DNA of 53,126 bases from contig JBJDZJ010000096.1 of the NCBI GenBank assembly GCA_051867915.1, positions 1 through 53,126 on the forward strand. The letters run 5' to 3'. The notes under the pieces were generated by a model. It searched no databases, was not told the DNA's origin, and worked only from the letters and a program-made list of their open reading frames with translations. Of the stretch, positions 8,357-53,126 are shown one piece after another. Made by a program: the position numbers and the translations under genes. This DNA comes from Eubacteriales bacterium. GTDB lineage: Bacteria > Bacillota > Clostridia > Oscillospirales > CAG-272. Each line of letters begins with the position of its first letter. Position 1 is the first letter of the stretch.

Positions 8357-8392
8357 GTCAAATACCAACATATATATTAAAGGGGTGTTCAT

Positions 8393-9733: not shown

Positions 9734-9745
9734 CAGGTAGAAGCC

Positions 9746-10831: not shown

Positions 10832-10843
10832 GGAGGACCGTGT

Positions 10844-11641
10844 ATGAAAAAAATCTTCCTTATGGTTACCGTTACTCTCACCGCTTTTCTGACTGCCTTT
10901 CCGGTGTCCGCCATCGGGCCGGATACCGTGTCCGATGCCGGAACCTCCTATGTCTTTGACGAAGCGGGCATTCTCACCGACAGACAGTCGGAAACCCTTG
11001 ATGAAAAGCTTGCTTCGGTCAGCAGTCTGCGGGACTGCGATGTGATGGTGCTGACGGTGAAATCCTTGGGATACCGATCCGCTCAGGCGTACGCTGATGA
11101 CTATTACGACGAAAACGGGCTGGGAAGGGGAGACGGCGATGACGGAATCCTTCTGCTGGTCAGTGTCTATGATCGGGAGTGGGCGATTTCCACCTACGGC
11201 TTTGGAATCGAGGCCATTACCGAGGATGCGCTGGATCGCATAGAGGATGACATTTTCACCGATCTGTCGGAGGATCGCTATTACGAAGCCTTCCTGTCCT
11301 ATGCGGATACCGCCGACTTCATGCTGGAAAGGGCAAGAGAGGGGAAGCCCTACCGTGTCTTCCCGTGGATCATCATCCCCATATCTCTGATTCTGGGTCT
11401 TGTCATTGCCCTTGTCTGCGTGAACAGCATGAAGAAAAAACTGAAATCGGTACGGCGGGCGACGGGCGCCTCCGATTATGTCCGAAAGAACAGCCTGAAT
11501 ATCCGCGACAGACGGGATGTCTATCTTTACAGCACCGTATCCAAGATCCCGATACCCAAAGATAACGGCGGAGGATCGGGTTCTTCCACCCATACATCTT
11601 CGTCAGGACGCTCCCACGGAGGCAGAAGCGGTCGTTTTTGA
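10844..11641 (+). CDS. TPM-domain (YdjH-like) membrane protein
   Basis: Signal peptide, then TPM-type blocks 'VFDEAGILTDRQSETLDEKL' and 'DDGILLLVSVYDREWAISTYG'. A TM helix 'IIIPISLILGLVIALVCV' and a Gly/Ser-rich tail follow. AAGGAGG Shine-Dalgarno. Confidence 0.75.
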   Translation: MKKIFLMVTVTLTAFLTAFPVSAIGPDTVSDAGTSYVFDEAGILTDRQSETLDEKLASVSSLRDCDVMVLTVKSLGYRSAQAYADDYYDENGLGRGDGDDGILLLVSVYDREWAISTYGFGIEAITEDALDRIEDDIFTDLSEDRYYEAFLSYADTADFMLERAREGKPYRVFPWIIIPISLILGLVIALVCVNSMKKKLKSVRRATGASDYVRKNSLNIRDRRDVYLYSTVSKIPIPKDNGGGSGSSTHTSSSGRSHGGRSGRF

Positions 11642-23189: not shown

Positions 23190-23315
23190 CTTTTAACCGA
23201 GCCTTTCTGTGTACGGAAGTAAAGTTGATGTTTTCTTGTCTTCATTTTATCATGCTTATATGAACTTTTCATGAATGATCGAAAAGATTTGGATGAATCC
23301 GCTCGGATTTTCTCT

Positions 23316-23681
23316 TTATTTTGCCACAATCCCGGCTCCGAAGGGCATGATGGCAAGCTTGGCGAATTTCAGGAACTGGATGCCGAAGGGAATGCCCACT
23401 ATGGTGACGCACAAGGCGATTCCGATGAGGAAGGATGCGGCGGCAAGCTCCCATCCGAATATCAAAATCCACAAAATATTCAGAAGCAGACTGCCCGTTC
23501 TTCCGCCGTATATGACGGTGCGACCGAAGGGCCACAGAACAAAGCCTGCAAATTTCATGCACTGTACGCCTGCCGGGATTCCCACGACGGTGATACAGCA
23601 GAGAATTCCGGCAATAAACCAAAGAACGGCCAAAAGAAAGCCGCCGAAGATCAGCCAGAGGAGGTTCCCGATGGTTCTCAT
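23316..23681 (-). CDS. yccF: YccF-domain inner-membrane protein (DUF307)
   Basis: 'GNLLWLIFGGFLLAVLWFIAGILCCITVVGIPAGVQCMKFAGFVLWPFGR', repeated as '...LWILIFGWELAAASFLIGIALCVTIVGIPFGIQFLKFAKLAIMPFG'. Confidence 0.85.
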   Translation of the reverse strand: MRTIGNLLWLIFGGFLLAVLWFIAGILCCITVVGIPAGVQCMKFAGFVLWPFGRTVIYGGRTGSLLLNILWILIFGWELAAASFLIGIALCVTIVGIPFGIQFLKFAKLAIMPFGAGIVAK

Positions 23682-23716
23682 ATGTTTCCTGCCTTTCGTT
23701 TCATGTATTTGCCTTT

Positions 23717-25051
23717 TCAGGCCTGCTCGGGAGCATATTTTTTCAGATACCCGCTGACGGTGGAGTTTTTGGAAAAACGGACGGTGCGTAGGGACTCGCC
23801 CCAGTACTTCAGAATGTTCTCATAGGAGTCGTTTGCCAGATCGGGGGCTTTGATGTCGGCACTGTACAGTCCCCAGTTTCCGAGATTGCCCCGTCCGACC
23901 TTGTAGGTCCACATGGTCCGGGAGATTCCCGCTTCACTGTATGCCTTGTAGGCGTATTCCTGATTCTCGTCCCCGTTGTTGAACTCGCCCACATAAACGG
24001 CGACCCTGTACTTTTTCTGAACTTTTTTCAGCTCGGCAATCCGATAATCAATCATGAATTTCGAAGTATCGTAGAGGTGAAGCTGGTAGAGCATGTTTTC
24101 CCATCCGTAGTCGGCGGGATCGGGAAGGCAGTCGGTAGACCAGATTCCCTCCACCGAGATCACATGAGCGGAATCCACCTTTCGGATCGCCTGATAGAGC
24201 AGATCGTAGACTTCGTTCGTCAACCGAATCGCCTCGGCGGAGCCTGCCGACGGAGCATCCCCGTCGTTGTTCATGGGCTCGTTCAGAAGATCGTATGCGG
24301 CGACGGCACTGCGGTCTTTGTAGCGCTCGGCAATGGCGGTCCACAGACGGACCGTTGCATCTTTGGCATTTTGGTCGGTGTACAGATCGCATCTGCCGAC
24401 AGAGCCGCAACAGTGATTGGTGGACTGACCGCCGGGTGCACCGTGCAGATCGAGAATCACATAGACGCCGTACTGCTCGCACCAGTCAAGCAGACGGTCG
24501 ATGATCCGGAATCCCGGGATTTCATCGGGATTCTCCGATATGAAACTGCCGTCTTCCTTCATGAAATTGCGGTACCAGAAGGGAAGGCGGACGCAGTTGC
24601 AATCCAGTGCGGCGATTTTTTTGATGTCGTCCTCACGGATATAGTTGTCGGTATAGCTTTCAAAAAGTGCCGCCGCCTTTTCGCTTCCGAATCTCGATTC
24701 CAGAAGGGTCCAGGAGTCCAGATTGCAGTCCGATCCGTTTACCGGACACATCCAGCTTTCCTGGATCATCCATCCGCCCAGATTGACCCCGTGAAGGACG
24801 ACAACCCTGCCGTCTTCGTCGGTCAGCTCGCCGTTTTGAACCCGAAGGAAGGAAAGCAATGCGCCATCGGACTCGGGGGGAAGGGAATTGTTCTCCCCGT
24901 TATCGGCACTGCTGTCGCTGGTGCTGACGGCGCCGTCGCGGTCCGATTCCCGAGATTCGCTTTCGGCGTCCGGTCCCTCCGGTCTGCCCGTACAGCTTGT
25001 CAGAAGCATGGTCAGCGCCATAAGACAGGTGAAGACTCTTTTGGTTTTCAT
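23717..25051 (-). CDS. Glycoside hydrolase family 5 lipoprotein
   Basis: Lipobox 'LLTSCTG'. 'VNLGGWMIQESWM'. Acid/base motif 'AAYDLLNEPMN' and nucleophile motif 'VAVYVGEFNNG'. Confidence 0.85.
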   Translation of the reverse strand: MKTKRVFTCLMALTMLLTSCTGRPEGPDAESESRESDRDGAVSTSDSSADNGENNSLPPESDGALLSFLRVQNGELTDEDGRVVVLHGVNLGGWMIQESWMCPVNGSDCNLDSWTLLESRFGSEKAAALFESYTDNYIREDDIKKIAALDCNCVRLPFWYRNFMKEDGSFISENPDEIPGFRIIDRLLDWCEQYGVYVILDLHGAPGGQSTNHCCGSVGRCDLYTDQNAKDATVRLWTAIAERYKDRSAVAAYDLLNEPMNNDGDAPSAGSAEAIRLTNEVYDLLYQAIRKVDSAHVISVEGIWSTDCLPDPADYGWENMLYQLHLYDTSKFMIDYRIAELKKVQKKYRVAVYVGEFNNGDENQEYAYKAYSEAGISRTMWTYKVGRGNLGNWGLYSADIKAPDLANDSYENILKYWGESLRTVRFSKNSTVSGYLKKYAPEQA

Positions 25052-25413
25052 GTCAAAACCTCCCGTATATCAAAATGGAATACCGTCTGCATTTTCCCGT
25101 GTCCGGGCTATTGTCATTTTCTTCATGCGGCTATTTTACCACGAATCCTACCCTATGTCAAGTCCCAAACCTGTTTTTGGTGTATGTACACAAAATTCAT
25201 GTAAAAAAATTGTTAAATCTGCCATATCCGAATGATGGAAAAATTCATAAATATATGGTAAAATAGTTACATGAAATCATTCATACGCGGACATATCGAA
25301 GACTGTCAGAAAATCCGTTTCGACGGCTTGCGCCGACGCTTTGCAAAGCAAAGGCGTCGGATTTTCCGATGCTTCGGATATGGCAAATTTTTTGAATTAT
25401 TGGAGATTGAAAC

Positions 25414-27867
25414 ATGCGAATGATCGGAAAAAAACCTCTGATTCTCCTGATGGCAGTCTGTCTGATTCTGCCGACTCTGGCCTCCTGTCGGACGGCTGAA
25501 AAAAGTCCCGAAGATACCGAAGCGTCGGACATCAGCACCTCATTTACCCCAAATCCCGACAATGTGACCCCGGAAGTGACGGTGCCTCCCGTATCGGAGC
25601 AAACCTCCCCTGACGGAAAGGCAAAGGTGATTTATGCGGTCAGCGGCCCCGGCGGAACGCTGGACGGAAAGACCGAGCAGACGCCCGGCGCCTCCGGAAC
25701 CTCCGAGGTGAAGGCGGTCGCCGATGTGGGCTACTGCTTCAAAAGCTGGTCGGACGGTCTGACCGAGATCACCCGTAAGGGCGACACTTCCTCGGACGGC
25801 GTGGAAAAGACCATTTATGCCGTTTTCGAACCCGAATATCTGGAAATGCCGGTAATCAGCATTACCACCGAAACCGGAGAGGATGTAGACCCCTGGATCG
25901 GAAATCAGGTTTACATAGGTGCCACTCTGTCGATTACCAACTGCCCGGCGGTGAATGTCCTGACCGATATTACCATGCAGATGAGGGGACGGGGCAATTT
26001 TTCATGGCATGATGTAGATAAGAAGTCCTACAAGCTCAAGCTCACCGAATCGCAGAAACTGCTGGGACTCGGCGAGGGCAAATCCAAGAGCTGGTGCCTG
26101 ATCGCCAATCACTGCGATCAGTCCCTGATGCGCAACTATCTGACCTATCAGCTTTGCAGAGGTCTGTCTGGGCTTGACTGGGCGCCCGACTGCACCAATG
26201 TGGAGGTCTATCTCAACGGTCAGTACCGAGGGGTCTATCTGTTGGTGGAGTCCATTAAGGTGGATGAACACCGTGTGGCCGTCAGCGAAGATGTGGAGTC
26301 CGGAACCGACATCGGATACCTGCTTCAGATGACCAACAACAACGATGAGGCATACCATTTCAAATCCAACGGCTTCAATTTTGATGTCAAGAGCGACCTG
26401 TCGGCAAACCCCAATCAGGCGGAACAACAGCTGAACTATATCCGCACCTATGTGAACCAATGCTGGACTGCCGTCATGGGCGGCGATCAGGAAGAAATCG
26501 AGGCGCTGTTGGACCTTGATTCGGTGATTGACAGCTATCTGGTGGAGGAATTCAACAAGAACCTGGATGTGGGCTATGACAGCTTCTTTCTGTATAAGGA
26601 TACAGGCGGAAAACTGCATTTCGGACCGGTCTGGGACTTCGACCTTGCCTTCGGAAATTCCAACGAACACGGTTGCGAATACGCCGAAGGGCTGTATATC
26701 GGTGTCGATTATTGCAATCACTACCATTCCAACGAATGGTATACCTATCTCATGAGTTATGACTGGTTCCGTGAAAAGGTTGCACAGCGCTGGAAAAGCG
26801 AAGAAGTTCAGACGGTTTTCGGCGGAATTTCCGAACTGGCAACAAAGACCGCACAGGAAAACTACAATTCTTTCTGCCGCAATTTCAAACTGTGGGAAAT
26901 CTTCGGTCAGAAGATCAACCGGGAAACCTATCTGATTACCTCGCTGAAGAACTATACCGAGCATTATCAGTATCTTGCCAAATGGATCGGCGACCGTTTC
27001 GATTGGCTGAACGGCTTCATCGGTACGGATGAATACAATAAAGGGTATCTGACCGGATGGGAAATTGATATTCCCGATATCCCCGATGTCCCTGTAATCA
27101 TCATACCGGAGTTTTCGGGCGGAAACGGAACGCCTGACAGCCCCTATCTGATCTCCAACGAGCAGGATTTTGTGTCCTTCACGCAGATGCTGTATTCGAC
27201 CGATTTCAGCGGAATGTATTTCCGGCAGACTGCCGATCTGAATCTCTCGTCTATCAACGACTATAACGGCATCGGTTCCTCCGGATCCTTTGCCGGAGTC
27301 TATGACGGGGGAGGACATTCCATTACCGCACTTATCACATCGTTGGACGGCTGCATTTTTCCCTATGTCAGCGGACTGGTGATGAATCTCATCACCAAGG
27401 GGGCGGTGGTGAATAACAATCAGGCGGCGGGAATCTGCCGTTCGGTCCGTCAGGGAGGCGCACTGATCAACTGTGCGTCCTTCATGGATGTGACTTCCAC
27501 CGGCGGAAACGCAGGCGGTCTGTCCCCCTCGACTCAGGGAGGCGATGACAGCCCCGCTATTCTGAACTGCTTCTTTTTCGGAACGGTGAACGGCTTTGAG
27601 CAGTCCAGCCCCATCAATTGCTGGCTCTCGGGACGGTTTGGAAACTTTGCCTATATCTATCACTGTGAGACGCTTGACAACGAATTTCTGACTGTCAGCG
27701 ATGCTGACATTTCCCTGACGGCAGATCAGATGAAGAACGAGCTTGCCGATCTGCTCAACGCAAACATCAGCTCCCTTACCGATGTGCTTGCTCGCTACGG
27801 CGTGGGGACCGATGCGCTCTGCCGGTGGGTCGGAAGCGGCGACTGCCCCGTTATGCAGGCAAAATAA
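25414..27867 (+). CDS. CotH-family lipoprotein with List-Bact repeat and GLUG-like C-terminal domain (paralog 2)
   Basis: Lipobox 'PTLASC'. 'VADVGYCFKSWSDG'. CotH blocks: 'MQMRGRGNFSWH', 'KKSYKLKLTESQKLLG', 'WCLIANHCDQSLMRNY', 'VEVYLNGQYRGVYLLVES', 'FGPVWDFDLAFGN'. 'GGNGTPDSPYLISNEQDFVSF...FAGVYDGGGHSITA...NAGGLSPS'. Same domain order as 20583..23189. Confidence 0.8.
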   Translation: MRMIGKKPLILLMAVCLILPTLASCRTAEKSPEDTEASDISTSFTPNPDNVTPEVTVPPVSEQTSPDGKAKVIYAVSGPGGTLDGKTEQTPGASGTSEVKAVADVGYCFKSWSDGLTEITRKGDTSSDGVEKTIYAVFEPEYLEMPVISITTETGEDVDPWIGNQVYIGATLSITNCPAVNVLTDITMQMRGRGNFSWHDVDKKSYKLKLTESQKLLGLGEGKSKSWCLIANHCDQSLMRNYLTYQLCRGLSGLDWAPDCTNVEVYLNGQYRGVYLLVESIKVDEHRVAVSEDVESGTDIGYLLQMTNNNDEAYHFKSNGFNFDVKSDLSANPNQAEQQLNYIRTYVNQCWTAVMGGDQEEIEALLDLDSVIDSYLVEEFNKNLDVGYDSFFLYKDTGGKLHFGPVWDFDLAFGNSNEHGCEYAEGLYIGVDYCNHYHSNEWYTYLMSYDWFREKVAQRWKSEEVQTVFGGISELATKTAQENYNSFCRNFKLWEIFGQKINRETYLITSLKNYTEHYQYLAKWIGDRFDWLNGFIGTDEYNKGYLTGWEIDIPDIPDVPVIIIPEFSGGNGTPDSPYLISNEQDFVSFTQMLYSTDFSGMYFRQTADLNLSSINDYNGIGSSGSFAGVYDGGGHSITALITSLDGCIFPYVSGLVMNLITKGAVVNNNQAAGICRSVRQGGALINCASFMDVTSTGGNAGGLSPSTQGGDDSPAILNCFFFGTVNGFEQSSPINCWLSGRFGNFAYIYHCETLDNEFLTVSDADISLTADQMKNELADLLNANISSLTDVLARYGVGTDALCRWVGSGDCPVMQAK

Positions 27868-43154: not shown

Positions 43155-43235
43155 ATTAACAGACAAGAGAACAGAAGCAAAAAGACGGGCATAAGAATGT
43201 CCGATCAACACAAATATACGGAGGAGAAGAGAGTT

Positions 43236-45851
43236 ATGGAGAACAAGTACACGATTGTCGATAGCGTTGAGTCCTTTGAGATTGCCCTTGCAAAGGTCAG
43301 AGAGGCTCAGAAAATCTATGCGACCTATACCCAGGAGCAGGTTGATAAGATTTTCTATGCGGCAAGCGTAGCGGCCAATCAGGCGAGAATTCCCCTTGCC
43401 AAGATGGCAGTTGCCGAGACCGGAATGGGCGTTGCAGAGGATAAGGTGATCAAGAATCATTTCGCATCCGAGTATATCTACAATTACTACAAGGATATGA
43501 AGACCTGCGGCATCATCGAAGAGGATAAGGCGTTCGGCATCACCAAGATTGCAGAGCCGATCGGTGTTGTTGCTGCCGTCATCCCCACCACCAATCCCAC
43601 CTCTACCGCCATCTTCAAGACCCTGATCTCCCTGAAGACCCGGAACGGCATCCTGATTTCCCCCCATCCCCGTGCCAAGAAGTGCACCATCGAGGCGGCG
43701 AAGATCGTTCTTGAGGCGGCAGTCAAGGCAGGCGCACCCGAGGGGCTGATCAGCTGGATTGATGTGCCCTCTCTTGAACTGACCAACCTGCTTATGAAGG
43801 AAGCCGACATTATTCTGGCAACCGGTGGCCCCGGAATGGTCAAGGCGGCTTATTCCTCCGGAACTCCCGCATTGGGCGTCGGCGCAGGCAATACCCCTGC
43901 CATCATCGACAGTACCGCCAATGTTAAGGTAGCCGTCAACTCGGTGATCCACTCCAAGACCTTCGATAACGGCATGATCTGTGCATCCGAGCAGTCGGTC
44001 ATCGTCCTTCCCGAAGTTTATGACGCTGTAAAAGCAGAATTTGCCGCAAGAGGCTGTTATTTCCTGAACCCCGAGGAGACCGAGAAGGTTCGCAAGACCA
44101 TCATTATCAACGGCTCCGTCAATGCAAAGATCGTCGGACAGACCGCCTATACCATTGCCAAGATCGCCGGCGTTGAGGTTCCCGAAAGAACCAAGATCCT
44201 CATCGGCGAGGTGGAATCGGTGGACATTTCCGAGGAGTTCGCTCACGAGAAGCTGTCTCCCGTTCTGGCCATGTATCATGCAGACGATTTTGCGGACGCT
44301 CTTGCCAAGGCAGAGCATCTGGTTCACGACGGCGGCATGGGTCACACCGCCTGCCTCTACTGCGATGCAGTCTCCGAGCGTGCCAAGATCGACGAGTTCG
44401 CTCTCCGTATGCCCAACTGCCGTATGCTGATCAACACCCCTGCATCTCAGGGTGCCATCGGCGACATTTACAACTTCAAGTTCGCTCCCTCCCTGACGCT
44501 GGGATGCGGATCTTACGGCAGAAACAGCGTTTCCGAAAATGTGGGCTGCAAGCATCTTCTGAACATCAAGACGCTTGCCGAGAGGAGAGAAAATATGCTT
44601 TGGTTCCGTGCGCCTGAAAAGGTTTATATCAAGAAGGGCTGCCTGCCCGTTGCACTCGACGAGCTGAAGGCCGTCATGGGCAAGAAGAGAGCCTTCATCG
44701 TCACCGACTCCTTCCTGTACAACAACGGTTACACCAAGCCCATCGAGTCCAAGCTGGATGATATGGGTATCATGCACACCACCTTCTCCAATGTTGCTCC
44801 CGACCCCTCCCTTGCCTGCGCTAAGGAAGGTGCGGCTCTTATGAGCGCATTCAAGCCCGATACCATCATCGCCATCGGCGGCGGTTCTGCAATGGATGCC
44901 GCAAAGATCATGTGGGTTCTCTATGAACATCCCGAAGTTGACTTCTTCGATATGGCAATGCGCTTCATGGACATCCGCAAGCGTGTCTATACCTTCCCCA
45001 AGATGGGCGAAAAGGCATATTTCATCGCCATCCCCACCTCCGCAGGTACCGGCTCCGAGGTAACTCCCTTTGCGGTTATCACCGATCAGGATACCGGCGT
45101 GAAGTATCCTCTTGCCGACTATGAGCTGATGCCCAACATGGCAATTGTGGATGCAGACATGATGATGTCCGCTCCCAAGGGTCTGACCAGTGCATCGGGT
45201 ATCGACGCTGTTTCCCACGACCTTGAGGCCATCGCATCGGTAATGGCAACCGATTATACCGACGGTCTGGCTAAGCAGTCGCTGAAGATGATCTTCGACT
45301 ACCTGCCCGCCGCATATGACAACGGTCCTCACGATCCCGTTGCCCGTGAGAAGATGGCAAATGCCGCAACCATGGCAGGTATGGCGTTCGCAAACGCATT
45401 CCTGGGTGTCTGCCACTCCATGGCGCACAAGCTGGGTGCCTTCCATCATCTGCCCCACGGTGTTGCCAATGCGCTGATGCTGGATGAGGTCATCCGCTTC
45501 AACTCGGCAGAAGTCCCCACCAAGATGGGTACCTTCCCCCAGTACGAATATCCTCACACCAAGGCGAAGTATGCGGAAGTTGCTACCTACCTGGGACTTT
45601 CCGGCAATACCGACGATGAGAAGGTGGAGAGCCTGATCGCCGCTCTCGACGAGCTGAAGGCAAAGATCGGCATCAAGCCCACCATCAAGGATTATGTTCC
45701 CGATGAGGCAGACTTCCTGGCGCGTCTGGACGCCATGGTCGAACAGGCATTTGACGATCAGTGCACAGGCGCCAACCCCCGTTACCCTCTCATGAGTGAG
45801 ATCAAGCAAATGTACCTGAACGCTTACTACGGAACTCACGAGGAAGTATAA
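43236..45851 (+). CDS. adhE: Bifunctional acetaldehyde-CoA / alcohol dehydrogenase AdhE
   Basis: ORF 43197..45851. The N-terminal ALDH half and C-terminal Fe-ADH half ('GGGSAMDAAK', 'HSMAHKLGAFHHLPHG', 'FDDQCTGANPRYPL') are unmistakable. ATG 43236 is preferred, with GGAGGAG 9 nt upstream. Confidence 0.95.
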   Translation: MENKYTIVDSVESFEIALAKVREAQKIYATYTQEQVDKIFYAASVAANQARIPLAKMAVAETGMGVAEDKVIKNHFASEYIYNYYKDMKTCGIIEEDKAFGITKIAEPIGVVAAVIPTTNPTSTAIFKTLISLKTRNGILISPHPRAKKCTIEAAKIVLEAAVKAGAPEGLISWIDVPSLELTNLLMKEADIILATGGPGMVKAAYSSGTPALGVGAGNTPAIIDSTANVKVAVNSVIHSKTFDNGMICASEQSVIVLPEVYDAVKAEFAARGCYFLNPEETEKVRKTIIINGSVNAKIVGQTAYTIAKIAGVEVPERTKILIGEVESVDISEEFAHEKLSPVLAMYHADDFADALAKAEHLVHDGGMGHTACLYCDAVSERAKIDEFALRMPNCRMLINTPASQGAIGDIYNFKFAPSLTLGCGSYGRNSVSENVGCKHLLNIKTLAERRENMLWFRAPEKVYIKKGCLPVALDELKAVMGKKRAFIVTDSFLYNNGYTKPIESKLDDMGIMHTTFSNVAPDPSLACAKEGAALMSAFKPDTIIAIGGGSAMDAAKIMWVLYEHPEVDFFDMAMRFMDIRKRVYTFPKMGEKAYFIAIPTSAGTGSEVTPFAVITDQDTGVKYPLADYELMPNMAIVDADMMMSAPKGLTSASGIDAVSHDLEAIASVMATDYTDGLAKQSLKMIFDYLPAAYDNGPHDPVAREKMANAATMAGMAFANAFLGVCHSMAHKLGAFHHLPHGVANALMLDEVIRFNSAEVPTKMGTFPQYEYPHTKAKYAEVATYLGLSGNTDDEKVESLIAALDELKAKIGIKPTIKDYVPDEADFLARLDAMVEQAFDDQCTGANPRYPLMSEIKQMYLNAYYGTHEEV

Positions 45852-46233
45852 CTGATTTTATGGCAAAAGGAAGGGGGGTGCGCCGCGCCAACCCCCGCTA
45901 CCCCTTGATGAGCGAAATCAAGTAAATGTACCTGAACGCATACTATGGCACTCACGAGGAAGTATAACTGATTTTATGGCAAAAGGAAGGGGGTTGCGCC
46001 GCGCCAACCCCCGCTACCCCCTGATGAGCGAAATCAAGCAGATGTACCTGAACGCTTACTACGGCAAGCATGAGGAAGTATAAAAATAACAAAAATCAGC
46101 GACCCGGTCAAGGGTCGCTGATTTTTGAAAATAAGGAAGGGGGTTGCGCCGCGCCAACCCCCGTTACCCTCTCATGAGCGAAATCAAGCAAATGTATCTG
46201 AACGCTTACTATGGCACTCACGAGAAAGTGTAA
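45852..46233 (+). repeat. Three tandem, diverged copies (A, B, C) of the last ~80 bp of adhE, each preceded by an AAGGAAGGGGG(T/G)TGCGCCGC hairpin arm
   Basis: Copy A is 45869-45967 with an in-frame TAA at 45923. Copy B is 45985-46083 and is intact; with ATG 45976 it gives a 35-codon ORF MAKGRGLRRANPRYPLMSEIKQMYLNAYYGKHEEV. Copy C is 46135-46233. The stop codons of the native end, A and B lie exactly 116 bp apart (45851, 45967, 46083). Confidence 0.9.
46091..46126 (+). terminator. Intrinsic terminator after adhE-tail copy B
   Basis: AAAAATCAGCGACCC-GGTCAA-GGGTCGCTGATTTTT. Confidence 0.7.
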
Positions 46234-46501
46234 TTGATAATCTCCAAAAACAGCGGGTGAAGACCGTTGTTTTTAGGGCAAGATGAAGGGGCAAAGGGAA
46301 GCCCTGTTGCCGCCGCAAGATGAGCCTCATGGTGCCGATAGTTATTGTTTTCAACTCGCAGTGAGCTTACACAACTGCGAGTTGCTTTTGTTGACAACAA
46401 AAAGTGGTTGCTTTTTTGGTAAAAATAGTAGATAATCAAGATGAAAACAATTATGTTATTGTGCAAATAAGAAAAATAAATGCAGATAAAGGAGAGAACA
46501 T

Positions 46502-48085
46502 ATGGAGCTTAAATTGCAGATTGCCAAACTTCGTTCGGGAGCGGGCATGTCGCAGGAAGAACTTGCGGCACTGTTGGGCGTTTCAAGGCAGGCTGTTCAG
46601 AAATGGGAAAGTGGAGGAGCGGTTCCGAGACTTGATCATCTTATAAAAATGGCAAAGCTTTTCAGGGTTACTCTTGATTCGCTTGTGCTTGAAGGAAACA
46701 ACAGAATAACCGAGGAAATGATGCACGGAAGCAATATAGCTCCCGATTATGAGCACATGTGCTACTGGGAATCATATCCTCAGAACCTTTTGAATGAGTA
46801 CAGACAGTCAATCGAAGAGGGTAAAAACATATCAATATATGAGAAGCTTTTCAAAGCCGTGTATGAAATGCCGGCAGGAGAGCATAAAGAGAAAATGGCA
46901 GATCAGCTGTTTGATATAGTCTGCTCGGCAGGTACGGTTGAAAATTATCAGTATACCGAACCGTCGGGATATGACGAGATAAGGAAACTGTCGTCCGGCA
47001 CAACTGCCGAGATGAAAATGCCGTCCGATCACGAACTCAAGAAGAAGATAAAGGGCGCATGGCTCGGCAGAATATGCGGATGCCTGCTCGGCAAGCCGAT
47101 CGAAGGCATCCATACACCCGAATTGAAGAAACTTTTGAAAAGCTCGGATAACTATCCGCTTCACAGGTATATAACCACCGATGATGTGACGCCCGAACTT
47201 CAGAATGAGATATCGTACAGGGTGAGAAGAGACAGCCTTGTGGGTGCAATAAGCTGTGCACCTGTCGATGACGATACAAACTATACGGTTCTTGCATCTG
47301 TGATAGTTGACCGCTTCGGCAGAGATTTCAAATCCTCTGATGTTGCCAATTCGTGGGTGTGGTATCAGGGAAAAGATGCATACTGTACGGCAGAACGTGT
47401 TGCATTCAAGAATTTCGTTATGGGATACCGTCCACCGATGTCGGCTGTATACAAAAATGTTTACAGGGAATGGATAGGAGCACAGATAAGAGGGGATTAT
47501 TTCGGATATATAAATCCATGTGATCCTGCATCGGCGGCTGAAATGGCATGGCGCGATGCGTCAATATCGCATGTGAAAAACGGAATATACGGCGAAATGT
47601 TCGCATCGGCGATGATTGCGGCGGCAGCAGGCTGTAATGATATGGTTTCGGTCGTGAATGAAGGTCTTGCACAGATTCCGGTATCGTCGAGACTGTATGA
47701 ATCGGTCGGTTCGATTTTAAGCGGTTATCAGAACCGAGTTTCCAAAAGTGAGGCGTTTGCCAAAATTCATGCCGAATATGATGAATTTACAGATCACGGA
47801 TGGTGTCATACAATACCGAATGCAATGATTGTTGCGGCATCTCTCCTTTACGGTGGCGGAGATTATACCAAATCAATATGTATGGCTGTCGAAACAGGGT
47901 TTGATACAGACTGTAACGGCGCAACTGTCGGATCGGTGCTTGGAATGATGAACGGTGCCGATTCCATAGGGGCACAATGGACTGCTCCGATAAACGGGAC
48001 GCTTGATACATCTATATTCGGAGTCGGAAAGGTTAAGGTCGACGATATGGTCGAACGAACAGTAAAGCATATAAAAGCCAAATAG
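46502..48085 (+). CDS. Fusion of an XRE-type HTH DNA-binding domain with an ADP-ribosylglycohydrolase (ARH/DraG-fold) domain
   Basis: N-terminus 'LRSGAGMSQEELAALLGVSRQAVQKWESGGAVPRLDHLIKMAKLFRVTLDSLV'. ARH-type motifs 'IKGAWLGRICGCLLGKPIEG', 'PVDDDTNYTVLA', 'GFDTDCNGATVGSVLGMMNG'. AAGGAGAG Shine-Dalgarno. Confidence 0.75.
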   Translation: MELKLQIAKLRSGAGMSQEELAALLGVSRQAVQKWESGGAVPRLDHLIKMAKLFRVTLDSLVLEGNNRITEEMMHGSNIAPDYEHMCYWESYPQNLLNEYRQSIEEGKNISIYEKLFKAVYEMPAGEHKEKMADQLFDIVCSAGTVENYQYTEPSGYDEIRKLSSGTTAEMKMPSDHELKKKIKGAWLGRICGCLLGKPIEGIHTPELKKLLKSSDNYPLHRYITTDDVTPELQNEISYRVRRDSLVGAISCAPVDDDTNYTVLASVIVDRFGRDFKSSDVANSWVWYQGKDAYCTAERVAFKNFVMGYRPPMSAVYKNVYREWIGAQIRGDYFGYINPCDPASAAEMAWRDASISHVKNGIYGEMFASAMIAAAAGCNDMVSVVNEGLAQIPVSSRLYESVGSILSGYQNRVSKSEAFAKIHAEYDEFTDHGWCHTIPNAMIVAASLLYGGGDYTKSICMAVETGFDTDCNGATVGSVLGMMNGADSIGAQWTAPINGTLDTSIFGVGKVKVDDMVERTVKHIKAK

Positions 48086-48086
48086 G

Positions 48087-48135
48087 CGATTGTAAAACTG
48101 CGTTTTACAATCGGAGTGCGCAACGCACGGTTTTT
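48087..48135 (+). terminator. Two consecutive hairpins, the second with a T-run, after the HTH-ARH gene
   Basis: CGATTGTAAAAC-TGC-GTTTTACAATCG (48087-48113), then GTGCG-CAA-CGCAC followed by GGTTTTT (48116-48135). Confidence 0.6.
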
Positions 48136-48359
48136 CACGCACTTATCGTCTTCGGGTTTGGCAGCTTCAATCGGTGCGTGGACTCGCTTTGCTCGTCTTT
48201 GCGGTGTTTTTACTTATATTCGTCATGTTTACAATCGCCTCTTATACAACAAAAACGGATAAAAATCAGTAGTATATATGTTAAAAAAGCATTCTGCCGA
48301 TTGGCTTTTTTGACTTTTTTCAATCGGCCATCTAAAAGCCAAATTAAAGGAGAACCGTA

Positions 48360-48485
48360 ATGGATAAAAAACAAATTTATGTTGCCCCCGAAATTGATAT
48401 CTGTCTTGTCGAAAGCTCTGATATTGTGCTGATTTCAACTGTAGACCGGGACGGAACCCTGGGAAAAATCGGATATGATGATTAA
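48360..48485 (+). CDS. Unannotated 41-codon sORF (MDKKQIYVAPEIDICLVESSDIVLISTVDRDGTLGKIGYDD)
   Basis: AAGGAG (48347-48352) lies 7 nt before ATG 48360. The TAA at 48483-48485 is 18 nt before the ATG of the secreted ARH gene. Too short for the ORF track. Paralogous to the sORF at 51699..51812. Confidence 0.5.
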   Translation: MDKKQIYVAPEIDICLVESSDIVLISTVDRDGTLGKIGYDD

Positions 48486-48503
48486 AAAAGAGAGGTGCTT
48501 AAA

Positions 48504-51320
48504 ATGATGAAAAGAATAATTTCCGCTGTTTCGGTTGCCCTTGCACTGCTGTTGTGCCTCTCTGTTTTTCCGCTGACATTTGTTTTAAATGCAGAGGAAA
48601 ATAGATCTGCCGAAGATGTCATGCTTGTTGCCCCTTCTGCCGATCAGACAGCAAAGGGTTTCTGCCGCACCGATGTTAATCCGGAAGACGGTTCTAAAAA
48701 AGATCTTTGCATAATAATGGAAGCAAAAAGGGAAGATCTGAAGAAATATGAAAGCTGTGAGTTTTCAATAAGCTTTTCAGCCGGAGACGAAACGGTAAAA
48801 AGCAAAAATTACAGAGCGAAAATCGCATATAAATCAATAGTTGACAACCAGAGAAAATATATTGCAGCCGACGGTTGCGGACTTATTGGATGTGTAATAA
48901 CCGGAATCCCGTCATCGGTTACATCGTTTGATGCAATCGCTTGCCTTAAGAGCAGTGATAATGTCGAAACAAAAATAAATCTCGGCTCCGCAATTCTTTC
49001 AAAAGGAACGGTAACACTCACACGGGATGAAATTTATGATAAACTTCTCGGCGGCTGGCTCGGACAGATGATAGGAGTTTCATGGGGGGCATCGACCGAA
49101 TTCGGATATTGCGGAGAAATTATTCCCGAAAACAGAATACCGAAGTGGAAGCCGTCAATGATAAACGATGCTTTTGCACAGGACGATCTTTATGTCGAAA
49201 TCCCGTTCATGGAAGTGATGAAGAAAAACGGTGTTGATTGCGATGTCAACCTTATTGCCGATAATTTTGCAAAATCGGAGTTCCCGCTTTGGCATGCAAA
49301 CTATCAGGCAAGACTGAATCTTCAGAACGGCATAAAGTATCCCGATTCGGGCAGTCCGAAATACAATATACATGCAGATGACATAGATTGGCAGATAGAA
49401 GCCGATTTCCTCGGAATGATTTATCCCGGACTTGTCAACAGAGCGGCGGAACGTTCATTTGAACTCGGTCACATCATGAATTACGGAGACGGAGTGTACG
49501 GAGGCGTTTTTGTAAGCGCACTTCATTCGGCAGCTTATACCGCAAGAACTCTTGATGAGGTCATTCAGGCAGGACTTGATGCCATTCCGGACGGGACTCT
49601 TTTCAAGGAAACGCTTCTTGATGTTGTAAACGGCTATAATAACGGCGAGAGTTGGGAGGATGTCTGGAAAACGCTCGAAAACAAGTGGGCGGATACCGAT
49701 AAATGCACAGAGTGTGCAGGTCCTATCAATATAGATGCAAAGCTGAACAGCGCATATGTGCTGATCGGACTTCTTTACGGTGCCGGAAACCTTGAAAAAA
49801 CAATAATCATATCAACAAGATGCGGTCAGGACAGTGACTGCAATCCGTCGACGGCGGCATCGGTTCTTTGTAATTTTCTCGGTGCGTCCGCAATTCCCGA
49901 TAAATATAAATCGGCTGTTGACATGGTCAATACAAAATTCCAGACTACCGATTATTCTCTCGGAGAGATAATTGACCTTTCAATGCAGCTTATAAGTGAA
50001 ACGGTGTCGGCATCCGGCGGAAGGGTAAAAGAAAATGATTATACTCTCGTTGTGTCGGATGAAATAAATGCAACTCCTTTTGAACAGTGGGAAGGCGGAA
50101 TCGGAGTACAGCTTTTGGTAAATGTTACAAGCGGGTGCGCAGTAAATATCAGATTCGAATCGGCAGGAGCCGAAAAGATCAAAAAAGTAACATATGATAT
50201 GGGTGACGGCTTCGTAACAAGCGAAAATCTTTGCATGTACGGTTATTCGAAACCCGGAACATACAGGATTACCTGTGAGGTAGAGGGAGAAGAAGGAACA
50301 AAACTCACGCTTGAAACTACCATAACGCTTGAATCGGAGCTTTCGGGAATAAAATATAATCCGATTTGTTCTGTCGATGCGCCTTTGGGAAGCGGAAATA
50401 AAGATATGCATGTTTTCTGCGACGGTGTAATTCCTTCAACAACAGATACATCTTCCGCATTGCAGTACGATACCTATTGCGGCGGAGGAGAGATGGACAG
50501 CCTTTATGTCGGAATGGAATTTGACAAAACAGTTTCGCTGACAGGAGTTAAGTTTACCGAGGGTCTGCATTTCTGGGACGGTGGATGGTTTGACGGAGTT
50601 CCGAATGTAGAGCTTCTCATAGACGGTAAATGGGTTGAAGTTGCAACATATAACGACGGAAAGGAATATCCTGATAAAAACAGCATGACTGCACACGGAT
50701 TGCCGTTTGAAAGCTATGTGTTCAGATTTGAAAAAACCACAGAGTGTGACGGGGTGCGCTTTAAGGGCAAACCCGGAGGAAGTGCACATTTTATAAGTGT
50801 TGCCGAAATAACACCGTTTACCAATGACAACAGTGTGACAGTAAAGCAAAAAACTGCAATAATCTGTTCGGTGTCGGCACCGTTGGGCGGAGGATCGAAA
50901 GATATAGGCGTTATTTGTGACGGAATTGTTCCGGATGCTTCATCTGCGAACGATTTGATGCAGTACGACACCTATATCGGAGAAACTGCTGATGCATTTG
51001 CATATGTCGGATATCTGTTTGTGGCAGAACGAAATCTTTCGGGAATTGTGTTTGCGGAAGGCAATCATTTCAATAACGGCGGATGGTTCAAAAACGGCGA
51101 CATAAAAGTACAGATTCTTACCGACGAAGGATGGGTGGATGTGCTGTGCGACGGCATTGACCGATATCCTGTCGGTGACAGCAGGGATGTTTTCGGATCC
51201 GGCTACCAGAGCTATACCTTCAGGTTGAAGGAACCGGTATCTTGCAGAGGAATACGCATTGCCGGAACAACCGGAGGATGCGGTTTCATAAGTGTAAGCG
51301 AGTTGACTGTTATCGACTGA
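48504..51320 (+). CDS. Secreted multidomain protein: unknown N-domain, ADP-ribosylglycohydrolase-fold domain, PKD-like domain and two discoidin/CBM-like repeats
   Basis: ORF 48495..51320. ATG 48504 has AGAGAGG 8 nt upstream. Signal peptide MMKRIISAVSVALALLLCLSVFPLTFVLNA. ARH motifs 'LLGGWLGQMIGVSWGASTEFG', 'AQDDLYVEIPFM', 'RCGQDSDCNPSTAASVLCNFLG'. PKD-like 'VTYDMGDGFVTSENLCMYGYSKPGTYRITCEV'. Duplicated 'ICSV(D/S)APLG(S/G)G(N/S)KD..V.CDG(V/I)(I/V)P...QYDTY.G' modules. Confidence 0.75.
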   Translation: MMKRIISAVSVALALLLCLSVFPLTFVLNAEENRSAEDVMLVAPSADQTAKGFCRTDVNPEDGSKKDLCIIMEAKREDLKKYESCEFSISFSAGDETVKSKNYRAKIAYKSIVDNQRKYIAADGCGLIGCVITGIPSSVTSFDAIACLKSSDNVETKINLGSAILSKGTVTLTRDEIYDKLLGGWLGQMIGVSWGASTEFGYCGEIIPENRIPKWKPSMINDAFAQDDLYVEIPFMEVMKKNGVDCDVNLIADNFAKSEFPLWHANYQARLNLQNGIKYPDSGSPKYNIHADDIDWQIEADFLGMIYPGLVNRAAERSFELGHIMNYGDGVYGGVFVSALHSAAYTARTLDEVIQAGLDAIPDGTLFKETLLDVVNGYNNGESWEDVWKTLENKWADTDKCTECAGPINIDAKLNSAYVLIGLLYGAGNLEKTIIISTRCGQDSDCNPSTAASVLCNFLGASAIPDKYKSAVDMVNTKFQTTDYSLGEIIDLSMQLISETVSASGGRVKENDYTLVVSDEINATPFEQWEGGIGVQLLVNVTSGCAVNIRFESAGAEKIKKVTYDMGDGFVTSENLCMYGYSKPGTYRITCEVEGEEGTKLTLETTITLESELSGIKYNPICSVDAPLGSGNKDMHVFCDGVIPSTTDTSSALQYDTYCGGGEMDSLYVGMEFDKTVSLTGVKFTEGLHFWDGGWFDGVPNVELLIDGKWVEVATYNDGKEYPDKNSMTAHGLPFESYVFRFEKTTECDGVRFKGKPGGSAHFISVAEITPFTNDNSVTVKQKTAIICSVSAPLGGGSKDIGVICDGIVPDASSANDLMQYDTYIGETADAFAYVGYLFVAERNLSGIVFAEGNHFNNGGWFKNGDIKVQILTDEGWVDVLCDGIDRYPVGDSRDVFGSGYQSYTFRLKEPVSCRGIRIAGTTGGCGFISVSELTVID

Positions 51321-51355
51321 ATACCGATTTGCGATATCCGTTTATACAGACAAAT

Positions 51356-51398
51356 ATACTCCGAATGACAAATCTGTGTCGTTCGGAGTATGGTTTTT
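51356..51398 (+). terminator. Intrinsic terminator of the secreted-ARH gene
   Basis: ATACTCCGAATGACA (51356-51370) pairs with TGTCGTTCGGAGTAT (51377-51391), followed by GGTTTTT. Confidence 0.7.
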
Positions 51399-51564
51399 AC
51401 TGTTTTGTTTTTAAAGGCAGAGGCTGTCCGCAATCTTCGCAAAGCCGAAGATGTCGAGTTTTTCTCCGCATATGTTCGGATCAAATCCGCAGGAATAAAC
51501 CGCCTGCAAGATATCTTGCTTGGAAAATGCCGGAAATGATGACGAGATGCTTTTACGAGAGTTG

Positions 51565-51648
51565 TTGCGCCGCGCCAACCCCCGTTACCCTCTCATGAGC
51601 GAAATCAAGCAGATGTACCTGAATGCTTACTACGGCAAGCATAGAAAG
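51565..51648 (+). repeat. Fourth displaced copy (D) of the adhE 3' end
   Basis: 'TTGCGCCGCGCCAACCCCCGTTACCCTCTCATGAGCGAAATCAAGCAGATGTACCTGAATGCTTACTACGGCAAGCAT'. After it there is an apparent 1-nt deletion relative to copies B and C. Copy D lacks the GGGGG hairpin arm and is followed directly by the terminator at 51652-51683. Confidence 0.9.
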
Positions 51649-51651
51649 CTT

Positions 51652-51683
51652 CAAATCCCCCACTTTTGACAGTGGGGGATTTG
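51652..51683. terminator. Bidirectional terminator
   Basis: CAAATCCCCCAC-TTTTGACA-GTGGGGGATTTG, then AGATATTTTT. Lies between adhE-tail copy D (plus strand) and sORF 51699..51812 (minus strand). Confidence 0.7.
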
Positions 51684-51698
51684 AGATATTTTTATCTA

Positions 51699-51812
51699 TT
51701 ACCAATTAGGGTTCCAGGGGATGTCCTCCACTTCGCCGGATGTAAGCAGAACATCGGCGCTGTCGGTCAGGAGGATCTCCGCCTTCGGAGATTCGTAGAG
51801 TTCCTTTTCCAT
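51699..51812 (-). CDS. Unannotated 37-codon sORF (MEKELYESPKAEILLTDSADVLLTSGEVEDIPWNPNW)
   Basis: GGAGG (51821-51825, minus strand) lies 8 nt before ATG 51812, which is 14 nt after the LRR-gene stop. TAA at 51699-51701. Shares M-(D/E)-K-x(1-2)-(I/L)-Y-x2-P-x6-7-(S)-x-D-(I/V)-(V/L)-L-x-S with the sORF at 48360..48485. Confidence 0.5.
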   Translation of the reverse strand: MEKELYESPKAEILLTDSADVLLTSGEVEDIPWNPNW

Positions 51813-51826
51813 CTTTCTTACCTCCT

Positions 51827-53126
51827 TTACTGCTGGGGTGCGACGGCGTCGTAGTCGAACTGCGTTGCGGCGATCACAGAACCGTCGGCGGAAGTGACGG
51901 TCAGGGTCGCTGTGTCAAATCCGTCCGCCGGAATGTCGGTAACGACAAAGCCGAACAGGGTGCAGGACTCGCCGGCAACATAGGTCTCTCCTGCCGCAAT
52001 CAGACTGGTATAGATCTTCATGGTTTTGCCTTCCACATAGTCGGTATCAACCGTACGGGTGATGGTGTAGGGCGTTGCATTCCCGTCCTTGTAGAAGTTC
52101 AGCGTGACCTTGTCGCCTGCCCTGACAGCGTCATTCTCGGCAAGGATGATGCGCAGATCAAAGGAACCGTCCTCGTGCGTGCGGTTGCTGGAATAGGCGG
52201 AGAGATCGCCTTCTGCAACGGAGATGGTGTTGTAGGTAGTACCGTTACCCGCTTCCTCTTCGGTGATTTCGGCACGGTCAAACCCGGGCAGTGCAACGAA
52301 GGGATTGCCGTTTACATTGGCATAGTCTTCGGCAGTCGATCCGGCGAAGCCGTAGATGGTGGTGGCAGAGGGAATGGAATAATTGCTAATAGAACAAATG
52401 GGGTTATAAACTGTAATGCTGTCTAAGTTGGTACAGCCATCGAATGCCCCATAGCCAATCTGGGTAACACTGTCGGGAATGGTGACACTTGTCAAACCGG
52501 AGCAGCCATAGAATGAACTAAAGCTAATAGAGGTGACGCTGTCGGGGATGGTGATACTCGTCAAACCGGAACAGTTATAGAATGCAGAACCGCCAATCAC
52601 GGTGATGCTGTTGGAGATAGTGATGCTCGTCAAACCTGTACAGTCTTCGAATGCCGCATAGCCAATCTCGGAGACGCTGTCGGGAATGGTGATGCTCGTC
52701 AAGCCGGAACAGCCATAGAATGCAGAGTCGCCAATAGATGTAACGCTACCGTCCGTCGGAATGATACTGTTTTGGCATCCGAGAATCAATTTCTTGTTTT
52801 CGGTATCAATGAGACAGTTTCCGCTACTGTGGTAGGTTGTGTTGCCTTCCGATACGGTGATACCCGTCAAGCTGGAGCAACCATGGAATGCGAAATCACC
52901 AATCACGGTAACGCTGCCCGGAATGGTGATACTCGCCAAGCCGGAACAGTTAGAGAATGCAGAATCGCCAATAGAGGTAACACTGTCGGGAATGGTGATA
53001 CTCGTCAGACCTGCACAGTCTGCGAATGCACCAAAGCCAATTTCGGTGACACTACCGTCCGTCGGAATGACACTGTTTTGGCATCCGAGAATCAATTTCT
53101 TGTTTTCGGTATCAATGAGACAGTTT
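51827..53126 (-). CDS. BspA-type leucine-rich-repeat surface protein (C-terminal part; the 5' end lies beyond the window)
   Basis: The frame is open to the window edge. ~23-aa LRRs of the type 'IPDSVTSIGDSAFSNCSGLTSITIP' are repeated. A 306-bp super-repeat is present: 52746-52820 is nearly identical to 53052-53126. The C-terminal ~150 aa are non-LRR. Confidence 0.8.
   Translation of the reverse strand, partial: NCLIDTENKKLILGCQNSVIPTDGSVTEIGFGAFADCAGLTSITIPDSVTSIGDSAFSNCSGLASITIPGSVTVIGDFAFHGCSSLTGITVSEGNTTYHSSGNCLIDTENKKLILGCQNSIIPTDGSVTSIGDSAFYGCSGLTSITIPDSVSEIGYAAFEDCTGLTSITISNSITVIGGSAFYNCSGLTSITIPDSVTSISFSSFYGCSGLTSVTIPDSVTQIGYGAFDGCTNLDSITVYNPICSISNYSIPSATTIYGFAGSTAEDYANVNGNPFVALPGFDRAEITEEEAGNGTTYNTISVAEGDLSAYSSNRTHEDGSFDLRIILAENDAVRAGDKVTLNFYKDGNATPYTITRTVDTDYVEGKTMKIYTSLIAAGETYVAGESCTLFGFVVTDIPADGFDTATLTVTSADGSVIAATQFDYDAVAPQQ

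Follow-up and report, generated by a model that had tools for sequence, protein, structure and literature searches.

Cis-mobilizable elements (CIMEs) are defined as integrase-less islands that keep both attL and attR, and their accumulation in tandem is explained by accretion (PMC5704250). Elements related to ICESt1 and ICESt3 are inserted in this manner at the 3' end of the fda gene of Streptococcus thermophilus (as reviewed in PMC5704250), and a comparable situation is found at the ssrA gene of Dehalococcoides, where many tandem direct repeats are each preceded by a conserved motif that does not derive from the target, and where 15 islands are devoid of integration modules (PMC3146451). Here we analyze the 3' end of adhE in a 53,126-nt contig (JBJDZJ010000096.1, assembly GCA_051867915.1; hereafter, the window) of a Eubacteriales bacterium assigned to CAG-272 within the Oscillospirales. 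In this window, 5.4 kb of foreign DNA carrying two ADP-ribosylhydrolase (ARH) genes, one fused to an XRE-type helix-turn-helix (HTH) domain and the other encoding a secreted protein, lies within a tandem array of att-like copies of the adhE 3' end. We favor the interpretation of this locus as a decayed, integrase-less, CIME-like island, which we consider evenly balanced between being right and wrong. It is the best reading of the locus because the common left boundary of the repeats, their shared arm, the dyad at the junction, the logic of a replacement tail and the tandem array all match the traces left by site-specific elements.

The last ~83 nt of adhE are present five times in the window, once as the native end of the gene and four times as downstream copies, designated A to D (Table 1). 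The four extra copies start at the identical nucleotide, each behind a common core, TTGCGCCGC. The segment TGCGCCGC is the counterpart of TGCAC[A/C/G]GGC in adhE, and the adhE-derived homology consequently starts ~9 nt to the left of the boundary proposed in a preliminary description of this DNA. Relative to adhE, both that of the window and those of other species, the core of the extra copies carries a common 1-nt deletion and an A>G change, which argues for a single origin of all four copies at their left edge. A 33-nt arm unrelated to adhE is conserved upstream of A, B, and C, with the consensus CTGATTTT..AAGGAAGGGGG(T/G)TGCGCC (the arm on its own, without the tail, reads CTGATTTTNNNNNAANAAGGAAGGGGG, and the putative recombinase site GGGGGTTGCGCCGCGCCAACCCCC), whereas D keeps only GTTGCGCC. 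The 25-mer that spans the junction between arm and tail occurs four times, against zero occurrences expected by chance, and at A, B, and C the arm and the start of the tail jointly form a dyad, GGGGGTTG-N8-CAACCCCC, which is absent from the native junction and folds as single-stranded DNA with -9 to -10 kcal/mol. Copies C and D, which delimit the island, share a perfect 48-nt stretch (46143-46190 and 51564-51611) and are identical at 77 of 91 positions (85%) overall. The claim that the island is flanked by adhE-derived direct repeats is hence borne out and, as in CIMEs, both repeats include the 3' end of the target.

Table 1. Location of the adhE tail copies, the island genes and the associated signals (window coordinates).
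Feature	Position	Strand	Description
adhE, target gene	43236..45851	+	Pfam Aldedh, Fe-ADH and ADH_Fe_C; best orthologues at 81-82% amino acid identity
Native tail (tail0)	45769-45851	+	Last 83 nt of adhE
Unit A	45852..45967	+	33-nt non-adhE arm CTGATTTTATGGCAAAAGGAAGGGGGGTGCGCC, then tail copy A (45885-45967)
Unit B	45968..46127	+	33-nt arm as in A, then tail copy B (46001-46083; ...GKHEEV, stop)
Terminator in unit B	46090-46127		Bidirectional terminator hairpin after tail copy B
Unit C	46118..46233	+	Left boundary of the island; arm CTGATTTTTGAAAATAAGGAAGGGGGTTGCGCC, then tail copy C (46151-46233; ...GTHEKV, stop)
Left non-coding edge	46234..46501	+	Two hairpins (46246-46274 and 46352-46384)
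HTH-ARH gene	46502..48085	+	527 aa, cytoplasmic; XRE-type HTH fused to ARH fold; Pfam HTH_3 1e-15, ADP_ribosyl_GH 6e-44
Spacer	48086..48359	+	274 nt, lineage-specific; terminator hairpin 48087-48113; small hairpin and T-run 48116-48128
Small open reading frame	48360..48485	+	41 aa, MDKKQIYVAPEIDICLVESSDIVLISTVDRDGTLGKIGYDD; 54% amino acid identity to 41-aa frames at the same position in contigs L134-137; similar 41-aa frame in L151
Secreted ARH-like gene	48504..51320	+	938 aa; ADP_ribosyl_GH 2e-28, PKD, two C-terminal discoidin-like repeats
Terminator hairpin	51355..51392		Between the secreted ARH gene and the convergent rsmA-like frame
rsmA-like frame	51411..51578	-	55 codons; RsmA/KsgA C-terminus-like, probably a truncated remnant; immediately left of the D core
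Right boundary	51564..51685	+	Core GTTGCGCC, tail copy D (51572 to ~51648; ...GKH, then frameshift), strong terminator 51650-51685

The divergence among the tails shows the imprint of coding constraint. Over 23 codons, the five copies differ pairwise at 4-12 of 69 positions, and at least 16 changes can be deduced, 13 of them synonymous. The three counted as non-synonymous comprise a two-step Leu-to-Leu change, the nonsense codon of copy A (an in-frame TAA at 45923-45925), and a Thr/Lys site where natural AdhE proteins bear either residue, with both GTHEEV and GKHEEV present in the AdhE of other species. With an expected synonymous fraction of 0.20, this excess has a binomial probability of 2e-7. 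The corresponding AdhE peptide is near-invariant across the Clostridia. Differences that are almost exclusively synonymous indicate that each tail diverged when it still formed the functional terminus of an adhE gene, and hence that the tails stem from different functional adhE alleles, rather than from local duplication followed by drift. Their displacement must have been recent, and this is the pattern expected of incoming DNA that carries its own version of the target 3' end.

The DNA between the repeats also departs from the remainder of the window in composition. The preliminary description had noted a lower G+C content from spot counts and a shift in codon choice toward ATA, AAA, and GAA, and both observations are upheld by systematic analysis. 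The G+C fraction is 0.442 in the island (46234-51564), against 0.520 upstream (1-45851) and 0.513 in the 1.5 kb on the right side (51649-53126), and the sliding profile falls at ~45.9 kb and returns at ~51.5 kb. At third codon positions, the G+C fraction of the HTH-ARH gene (0.458, z = -3.2) and of the secreted ARH gene (0.418, z = -3.9) lies far below that of the 33 other open reading frames (ORFs) of the window (0.618 ± 0.051, standard deviation). Relative to 22 Pfam-supported background genes of the window, the island genes use Ile ATA (55%, 3% in the background), Arg AGA and AGG (70%, 23%), Lys AAA (68%, 37%), and Glu GAA (71%, 48%) in excess, and Leu CTG sparingly (16%, 58%), with a summed chi2 of 730 (41 degrees of freedom, p 4e-127). 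On a per-codon basis, chi2 reaches 0.56-0.88 in the island genes and 0.05-0.17 in seven long background genes, so that the deviation of the island genes exceeds that of every long background gene about 3- to 16-fold.

Both cargo proteins belong to large families, with at least 8,000 matches above thresholds for HTH-ARH (all scored candidates passed) and 6,277 for the secreted ARH. Most of these are unnamed or generically annotated, and the sources that are named are Clostridia and Oscillospiraceae of the gut and rumen. The typical HTH-ARH, at ~57% identity, is encoded by a stand-alone gene located close to lon and to a GTPase gene. Wherever identity reaches 70-87%, a secreted ARH-PKD gene comes directly after HTH-ARH, and this pair occupies four different neighborhoods: between CBM9 and NAT/rsmB genes and together with the 41-aa small ORF (sORF) in L134-137, between DUF4186 and polysaccharide deacetylase genes in L138-140, downstream of ricin-lectin genes in L145-146, where the contig ends just past the secreted ARH gene, and, as an sORF-ARH arrangement followed by CHAP, thioredoxin, and pheST genes, in L151-152. 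The gene set therefore travels as a unit, the pair, with or without the sORF, being adjacent in at least four other contexts, and adhE neighbors the module in none of the four. The G+C content of the module equals that of its host in L138 and L151, exceeds it in L134, and is lower in the window, which points to a portable unit and to a recent arrival of the window copy from a donor of lower G+C content. In IMG/VR, no close relative of HTH-ARH was found.

The island is also missing from the adhE loci of other species. Among 80 such loci, drawn from the Acutalibacteraceae and other Oscillospirales metagenome-assembled genomes and with a best AdhE identity of 82%, all have a single tail, no repeat and no island. 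Deviant composition and codon usage, the occurrence of the gene set in at least four unrelated contexts and the 80 island-free loci all identify the island as foreign, and horizontal acquisition of a module inserted at the adhE 3' end, as the preliminary description had put forward, is strongly supported. The same observations bear on the alternative that the tails arose in situ, by tandem duplication or replication slippage, next to native ARH genes of odd composition. The units are indeed in tandem, their spacers are near-identical (1 mismatch in 33), and the 116-nt units (those of the native tail and A) correspond to the 150-nt unit (B) without 34 nt of its terminator, all of which would suit local duplication. 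Neutral drift of duplicates cannot yield the almost purely synonymous differences described above, the island genes deviate by 3-4 standard deviations in third-position G+C content and use ATA for Ile to an extent foreign to the window, and the module is present at other loci in other genomes, so that we regard this alternative as extremely unlikely.

Recombinase, transposase, and relaxase domains were not detected by Pfam in the island ORFs or in the ~40 main ORFs of the window, eight of which have no Pfam match, and NCBIfam added nothing. The domains present are those of regulators, GH43, GH130, and GH5 enzymes, CotH kinases, BirA, ThyX, and others, which agrees with the initial view that the window has no integrase, transposase, or relaxase gene and, with respect to integration and transfer genes, with the definition of a CIME. 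A search in GTDB representative genomes for the junction pattern gave 0 matches, and the 51 metagenome matches and the single IMG/VR match to it proved to be chance 19-mers devoid of extended similarity. Matches to the tail in phages and plasmids (two "Bacteriophage sp.", an Enterococcus phage and many plasmids) correspond to whole adhE genes; weaker Listeria phage matches were left out of this inspection. The unverified phage records L142 (MT835503.1) and L150 (OR846599.1) contain a complete bacterial adhE together with other ORFs, L143 (MT838349.1) belongs to the same class of record, and such records probably include host DNA and provide no evidence of phage-borne adhE tails. An exact look-up of AdhE with two start choices returned no match (the mechanical ORF starts at 43197; the ATG at 43236, with a GGAGGAG site in front of it, is the likelier start), and a search with the neighboring LysR protein retrieved solely short contigs from the same study. 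The 82% identity of the best AdhE match places the organism itself outside the collections searched.

Taken together, these features place the locus among known types of island. As in CIMEs, the repeats on either side of the island are direct and come from the 3' end of a conserved protein-coding gene, which is kept intact by a replacement end, integration and transfer genes are lacking, and several att-like sites occur in tandem. Unlike the CIMEs at fda, the target is adhE, and no related integrase-bearing element is known, which removes the partner-based argument for mobilization in cis; furthermore, three of the units here are only 116-150 nt long, and the right arm is mostly lost and abuts an apparent gene remnant. 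The parallel with the ssrA islands of Dehalococcoides extends to the tandem repeats of the target 3' end downstream of an intact gene, to the non-target motif immediately upstream of each repeat, and to cargo of low G+C content and maladapted codon usage, in some cases without an integration module. In Dehalococcoides, however, most islands encode the serine recombinase DsiB and the repeat consists of 20 bp of the tmRNA gene (PMC3146451), whereas the window island has a protein-coding repeat of ~83-91 nt, synonymous divergence among copies and no recombinase. The kind of island is thus already known, as an integrase-less island at a gene 3' end with tandem att remnants; what is new is adhE as the target, the synonymous-only record of the tails and the linked ARH pair. 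Our literature searches returned no account of integration at adhE.

In the mechanism that we propose, circular elements would have carried an attP-like site in which a non-adhE arm (...AAGGAAGGGGGTTGCGCCGC) is joined to an adhE 3' end, and would have recombined at the same position of adhE. Each event would supply a new functional tail, and the tail in place until then would come to lie downstream of the incoming arm. A series of such events, followed by decay, would then have produced three cargo-less units (116, 116, and 150 nt), which would represent decayed elements, and one cargo-bearing unit from which the recombinase and most of the right arm were lost, the arm of D having presumably been shortened by a deletion that also cut an rsmA-like gene. 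The island that remains would be fixed, or movable solely by a recombinase supplied in trans, and the initial suggestion that it is immobile or mobilized in trans seems reasonable, as neither a recombinase in the window nor a cognate element in the collections searched was found.

Several observations weigh against this interpretation. On the one hand, cargo-less units of 116-150 nt are not simple products of site-specific recombination and call for additional deletions or duplications, the 8-9 nt of shared arm at D abut a truncated rsmA-like ORF and fit illegitimate recombination at least equally well, and the stability of the dyad shows no clear excess over shuffled sequences of similarly high G+C content (z -0.3 to -2.2). 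On the other hand, no recombinase-bearing element with the arm or target was found in GTDB representatives, JGI metagenomes, IMG/VR, INPHARED, or PLSDB. A scan for tyrosine and serine recombinase motifs near adhE in the 80 species yielded nothing convincing, and the AdhE and LysR look-ups revealed no closely related genome with an empty site. Lastly, the functions of the ARH proteins are putative, and their PDB relatives are only 12-17% identical.

At the right edge of the island, immediately to the left of the D core, lies an ORF on the minus strand that was overlooked in the preliminary description, convergent with the secreted ARH gene and separated from it by an intact terminator. Alignments relate its product to the C-terminal ~50 residues of short proteins and to the same part of one protein that matches PF00398, the rRNA adenine dimethylase family of RsmA/KsgA, at profile positions 150-259 of 263. 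Library-wide E-values range from 8e-6 to 7e-4, the latter corresponding to the PF00398-matching protein, which reaches 4e-10 in a pairwise comparison. Homology begins at two Arg codons (the QRRK region of KsgA) located inside the repeat core GCGCCG, and the first two codons of the ORF fall within tail D, so that the ORF abuts or overlaps the right junction and looks truncated by it. The Pfam scan of the fragment itself was negative, and the sequences most similar to it are short ORFs that precede pckA-like genes in unrelated organisms; the assignment to RsmA/KsgA, based on these alignments, carries moderate rather than firm confidence. The most similar of these short ORFs, P0242 and P0247, were set aside on account of this setting and since no adhE tail is near them. 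L153 (482-652) and L154 (76-318), two unrelated metagenomic contigs, contain ORFs of 56-80 aa upstream of pckA-like genes that resemble solely the C-terminal domain of RsmA/KsgA; these are either remnants of ksgA that recur in different genomes or members of a small family that stands alone.

With an apparently truncated rsmA-like ORF at its right junction, the island may have decayed, or may even have originated by illegitimate recombination. In natural transformation, homology-facilitated illegitimate recombination normally replaces the anchor rather than duplicating it. Applied to this locus, the process would involve a linear donor fragment on which adhE, the ARH module and a convergent rsmA are neighbors, and no element recombinase; the fragment would pair with one adhE tail, and its other end would be joined through the microhomology GCGCCGC to the next arm and tail. 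The one-sided anchor in the adhE tail, the junction at a few bases of microhomology and the apparently truncated donor gene, with homology starting exactly at the repeat core, are all akin to this process. Moreover, the secreted ARH gene, terminator, and rsmA-like ORF have the appearance of an intact convergent donor order, the arm of D is drastically reduced relative to that of A-C, the near-invariant AdhE tail peptide offers a good homology anchor across the Clostridia, and neither a mobility gene among the window ORFs nor a cognate element in the collections searched was found. Illegitimate recombination alone, however, does not account for several arrayed tails that share one arm, and leaves the origin of four copies with an identical left boundary unexplained. 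In addition, neither adhE nor rsmA neighbors the module in its four other contexts, the similarity to RsmA is weak in the library-wide search and in the negative Pfam scan of the fragment, and the best matches are short ORFs in unrelated genomes. We therefore consider this explanation somewhat unlikely, and we retain site-specific integration followed by decay as the preferred reading.

Unlike recombination scenarios, an assembly or population ambiguity would imply that the island is not integrated in most cells, or in any. The island would instead exist as a separate 5,421-bp circle, be it an excised element or a small replicon, or belong to another genome with the same 48-bp repeat, and the assembler would have threaded it through a repeat node with two entries and two exits. 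The perfection of the flanking 48-bp repeat, the extreme contrast in codon usage, and an independent Logan contig (L001, 5,433 nt) that stops exactly inside both repeats, as at a branch of the assembly graph, are compatible with this possibility. The same contig, however, joins the unique 3' part of tail C and unique sequence from the D side to the island, which places an adhE tail at both of its ends; the island and its flanks occur together in the same two samples, and the presence of host-like flanks on both sides would require two coordinated mis-joins. We judge such an ambiguity highly unlikely, and a circle, even one accompanied by an empty site, would be the excised form of the same element and compatible with the preferred reading of a CIME-like island.

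The two island proteins match the ARH/DraG family (PF03747), with profile scores of 151 and 100 bits against a cut-off of 26.2 and conserved Asp-rich di-metal motifs. In HTH-ARH, the motifs DDDTNY and GFDTDCNG are invariant in 37 homologues, and in the secreted protein QDD and GQDSDCN are invariant across homologues as well (36-37 per protein). The AlphaFold2 model of HTH-ARH (mean confidence, pLDDT, of 87) superposes in Foldseek on DraG, MJ1187, and ARH3 with TM scores of 0.65-0.79, those of 0.74-0.79 to DraG and MJ1187 pertaining to this model only, and sequence searches of the PDB with the island proteins gave remote matches to DraG/MJ1187 and to PKD domains only. The secreted ARH starts with what appears by inspection to be a Sec-type signal sequence. 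Its PKD_4 match (1e-5) falls just under the cut-off, and the C-terminal F5_F8_type_C match is also sub-threshold (E 9e-5, 23 bits against 28.2), in a region that consists of two repeats also visible as the internal DNA repeat D7. The 41-aa sORF, which has no match in Pfam or NCBIfam, is genuine, judging by its conservation in relatives. In the left edge of the island, 46372-46448 is 79% conserved with the region upstream of HTH-ARH in relatives. The three-unit organization of the cargo set out in the preliminary description is hence retained for the HTH-ARH gene, the sORF, the secreted ARH-PKD gene, and the terminators that each of the two large genes has of its own, with the discoidin call below threshold and the structured spacer abandoned.

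With respect to this spacer, its predicted stability does not exceed that of shuffled sequences (z -1.07), an Rfam search of 45500-52000 returned no match, and in the closest relative, L134, a 14-nt gap stands in its place. The supposed structured element thus looks, from these comparisons, like a lineage-specific insertion with a terminator, and not like a demonstrable structured RNA. Three GGCGATTGTAAAAC-like copies, one direct and two inverted, bracket ~155 nt of the spacer (48085-48239). As the whole spacer is missing from the closest relatives, it is possibly a small insertion, and it could be of the type of a miniature inverted-repeat transposable element, through which a terminator came to separate the sORF from the regulator.

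Bacteroidetes ribose-scavenging loci encode ADP-ribosylglycohydrolases, for which a release of ribose from ribosylated nutrients has been proposed (bioRxiv 10.1101/574913). The island resembles these loci in its secreted ARH-type enzyme, surface or secreted enzymes of this type being those proposed there to free ribose, and differs from them in having no ribokinase or ribose transporter. Besides the low identity mentioned above, the island proteins are unlike solved ARHs in that one is fused to an XRE HTH domain and the other is exported with PKD and discoidin-like domains, and no characterized HTH-ARH or secreted ARH-PKD protein was found in the literature. By homology, the secreted ARH may remove or release a ribosyl or ADP-ribosyl-type group from an extracellular substrate, and the paralogous cytoplasmic ARH domain, placed on a DNA-binding domain, may sense or process a related ligand and thereby regulate the operon. 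With 25% identity over 359 aa (E 2e-20), the two ARH domains are paralogues, and this paralogy, together with the combination of an exported ARH with binding domains and an ARH fused to an HTH, suggests that extracellular hydrolysis is coupled to intracellular sensing. The earlier proposal of a single sensing and effector unit finds support only in that paralogy and in linkage, the subclade at 70% identity or more being invariably followed by the secreted ARH-PKD gene. The window is also rich in genes for plant-glycan enzymes.

A bolder version of the site-specific reading would see the adhE 3' end as the attachment site of an undescribed integrative family in uncultured Oscillospirales, with the tails as a record of serial integrations from different hosts and the island as trans-mobilizable. 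Its cargo would be a two-compartment ARH system, composed of an exported glycan-binding ARH, a catalytically intact ARH domain that also acts as ligand sensor of an XRE regulator, and the 41-aa peptide as third component. We deem this full combination unlikely. If site-specific integration is correct, adhE, a highly conserved and highly expressed fermentation gene, is a further integration hot-spot besides tRNA genes, the tmRNA gene, fda, rplL, and the like. With their synonymous-only divergence, the tails provide an unusually clean way to show that replacement gene ends evolve under the coding constraint of the host gene, and a portable operon that links two ARH families with no close solved structure offers a concrete handle for a substrate search, with extracellular ADP-ribosylated proteins or peptides, NAD-derived compounds, and ribosylated glycans as candidates.

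Other known systems were compared with the repeats and rejected. An integron cassette array, or a cluster of attC sites lacking an integrase (CALIN), does not agree with repeats that are co-linear coding 3' ends with an 8-bp dyad only, no attC architecture and no integrase. In a diversity-generating retroelement, changes would be adenine-specific, and here they are mostly C/T and G/A synonymous substitutions at third positions, with no reverse transcriptase domain; shufflon or silent-cassette variation is at odds with direct repeats and synonymous changes. No dif-like 28-mer of the kind used by Xer/dif-exploiting elements was seen by inspection, and IS200/IS605-type hairpin ends are contradicted by the lack of a transposase and of a matching target logic. 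Mini-ORFs that would translate the tail peptide from AAGGAAGGGGG-TTG were discarded on account of poor spacing, a start inside the hairpin, the stop in A, and the missing motif in D.

A few further features of the cargo relatives and of the window deserve mention. In L134 (11746-15909), which has the closest relative of the module (87% identity in HTH-ARH), the secreted ARH-PKD protein is 1,387 aa long and has an additional C-terminal extension with Laminin_G_3 and esterase (PF00756) domains, and in L136 this extension is split off as a separate 351-aa gene. Just outside the island, at 51699-51812 on the minus strand, a 37-aa sORF (MEKELYESPKAEILLTDSADVLLTSGEVEDIPWNPNW; no match in Pfam or NCBIfam) lies directly downstream of a BspA-type leucine-rich repeat (LRR) gene for a surface protein. 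It has in common with the 41-aa sORF of the island the pattern Y-x-x-P...E-I...D-[IV]-[IVL]-L-x-S, and both adjoin genes for large proteins that are exported or likely exported. The pattern is reminiscent of leader peptides of ribosomally synthesized and post-translationally modified peptides, although no maturase gene is nearby. The BspA-type gene (52464-53126, minus strand; LRR_5 2.7e-59), which extends to the end of the window, has 288-nt direct repeats in its interior, and it is probably at repeats of this kind that the contig stopped. At 6525-11593 (minus strand), a 541-aa protein with N-terminal sigma-70 regions 2 and 4 comes ahead of an ORF of 1,148 aa that has no match in Pfam, and the pair may constitute an extended sigma or anti-sigma system with a large partner. 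Lastly, at 20583-27867, a GH5 cellulase lies between two large proteins with CotH kinase domains (868 and 817 aa), the rest of the window being rich in GH43 and GH130 enzymes.

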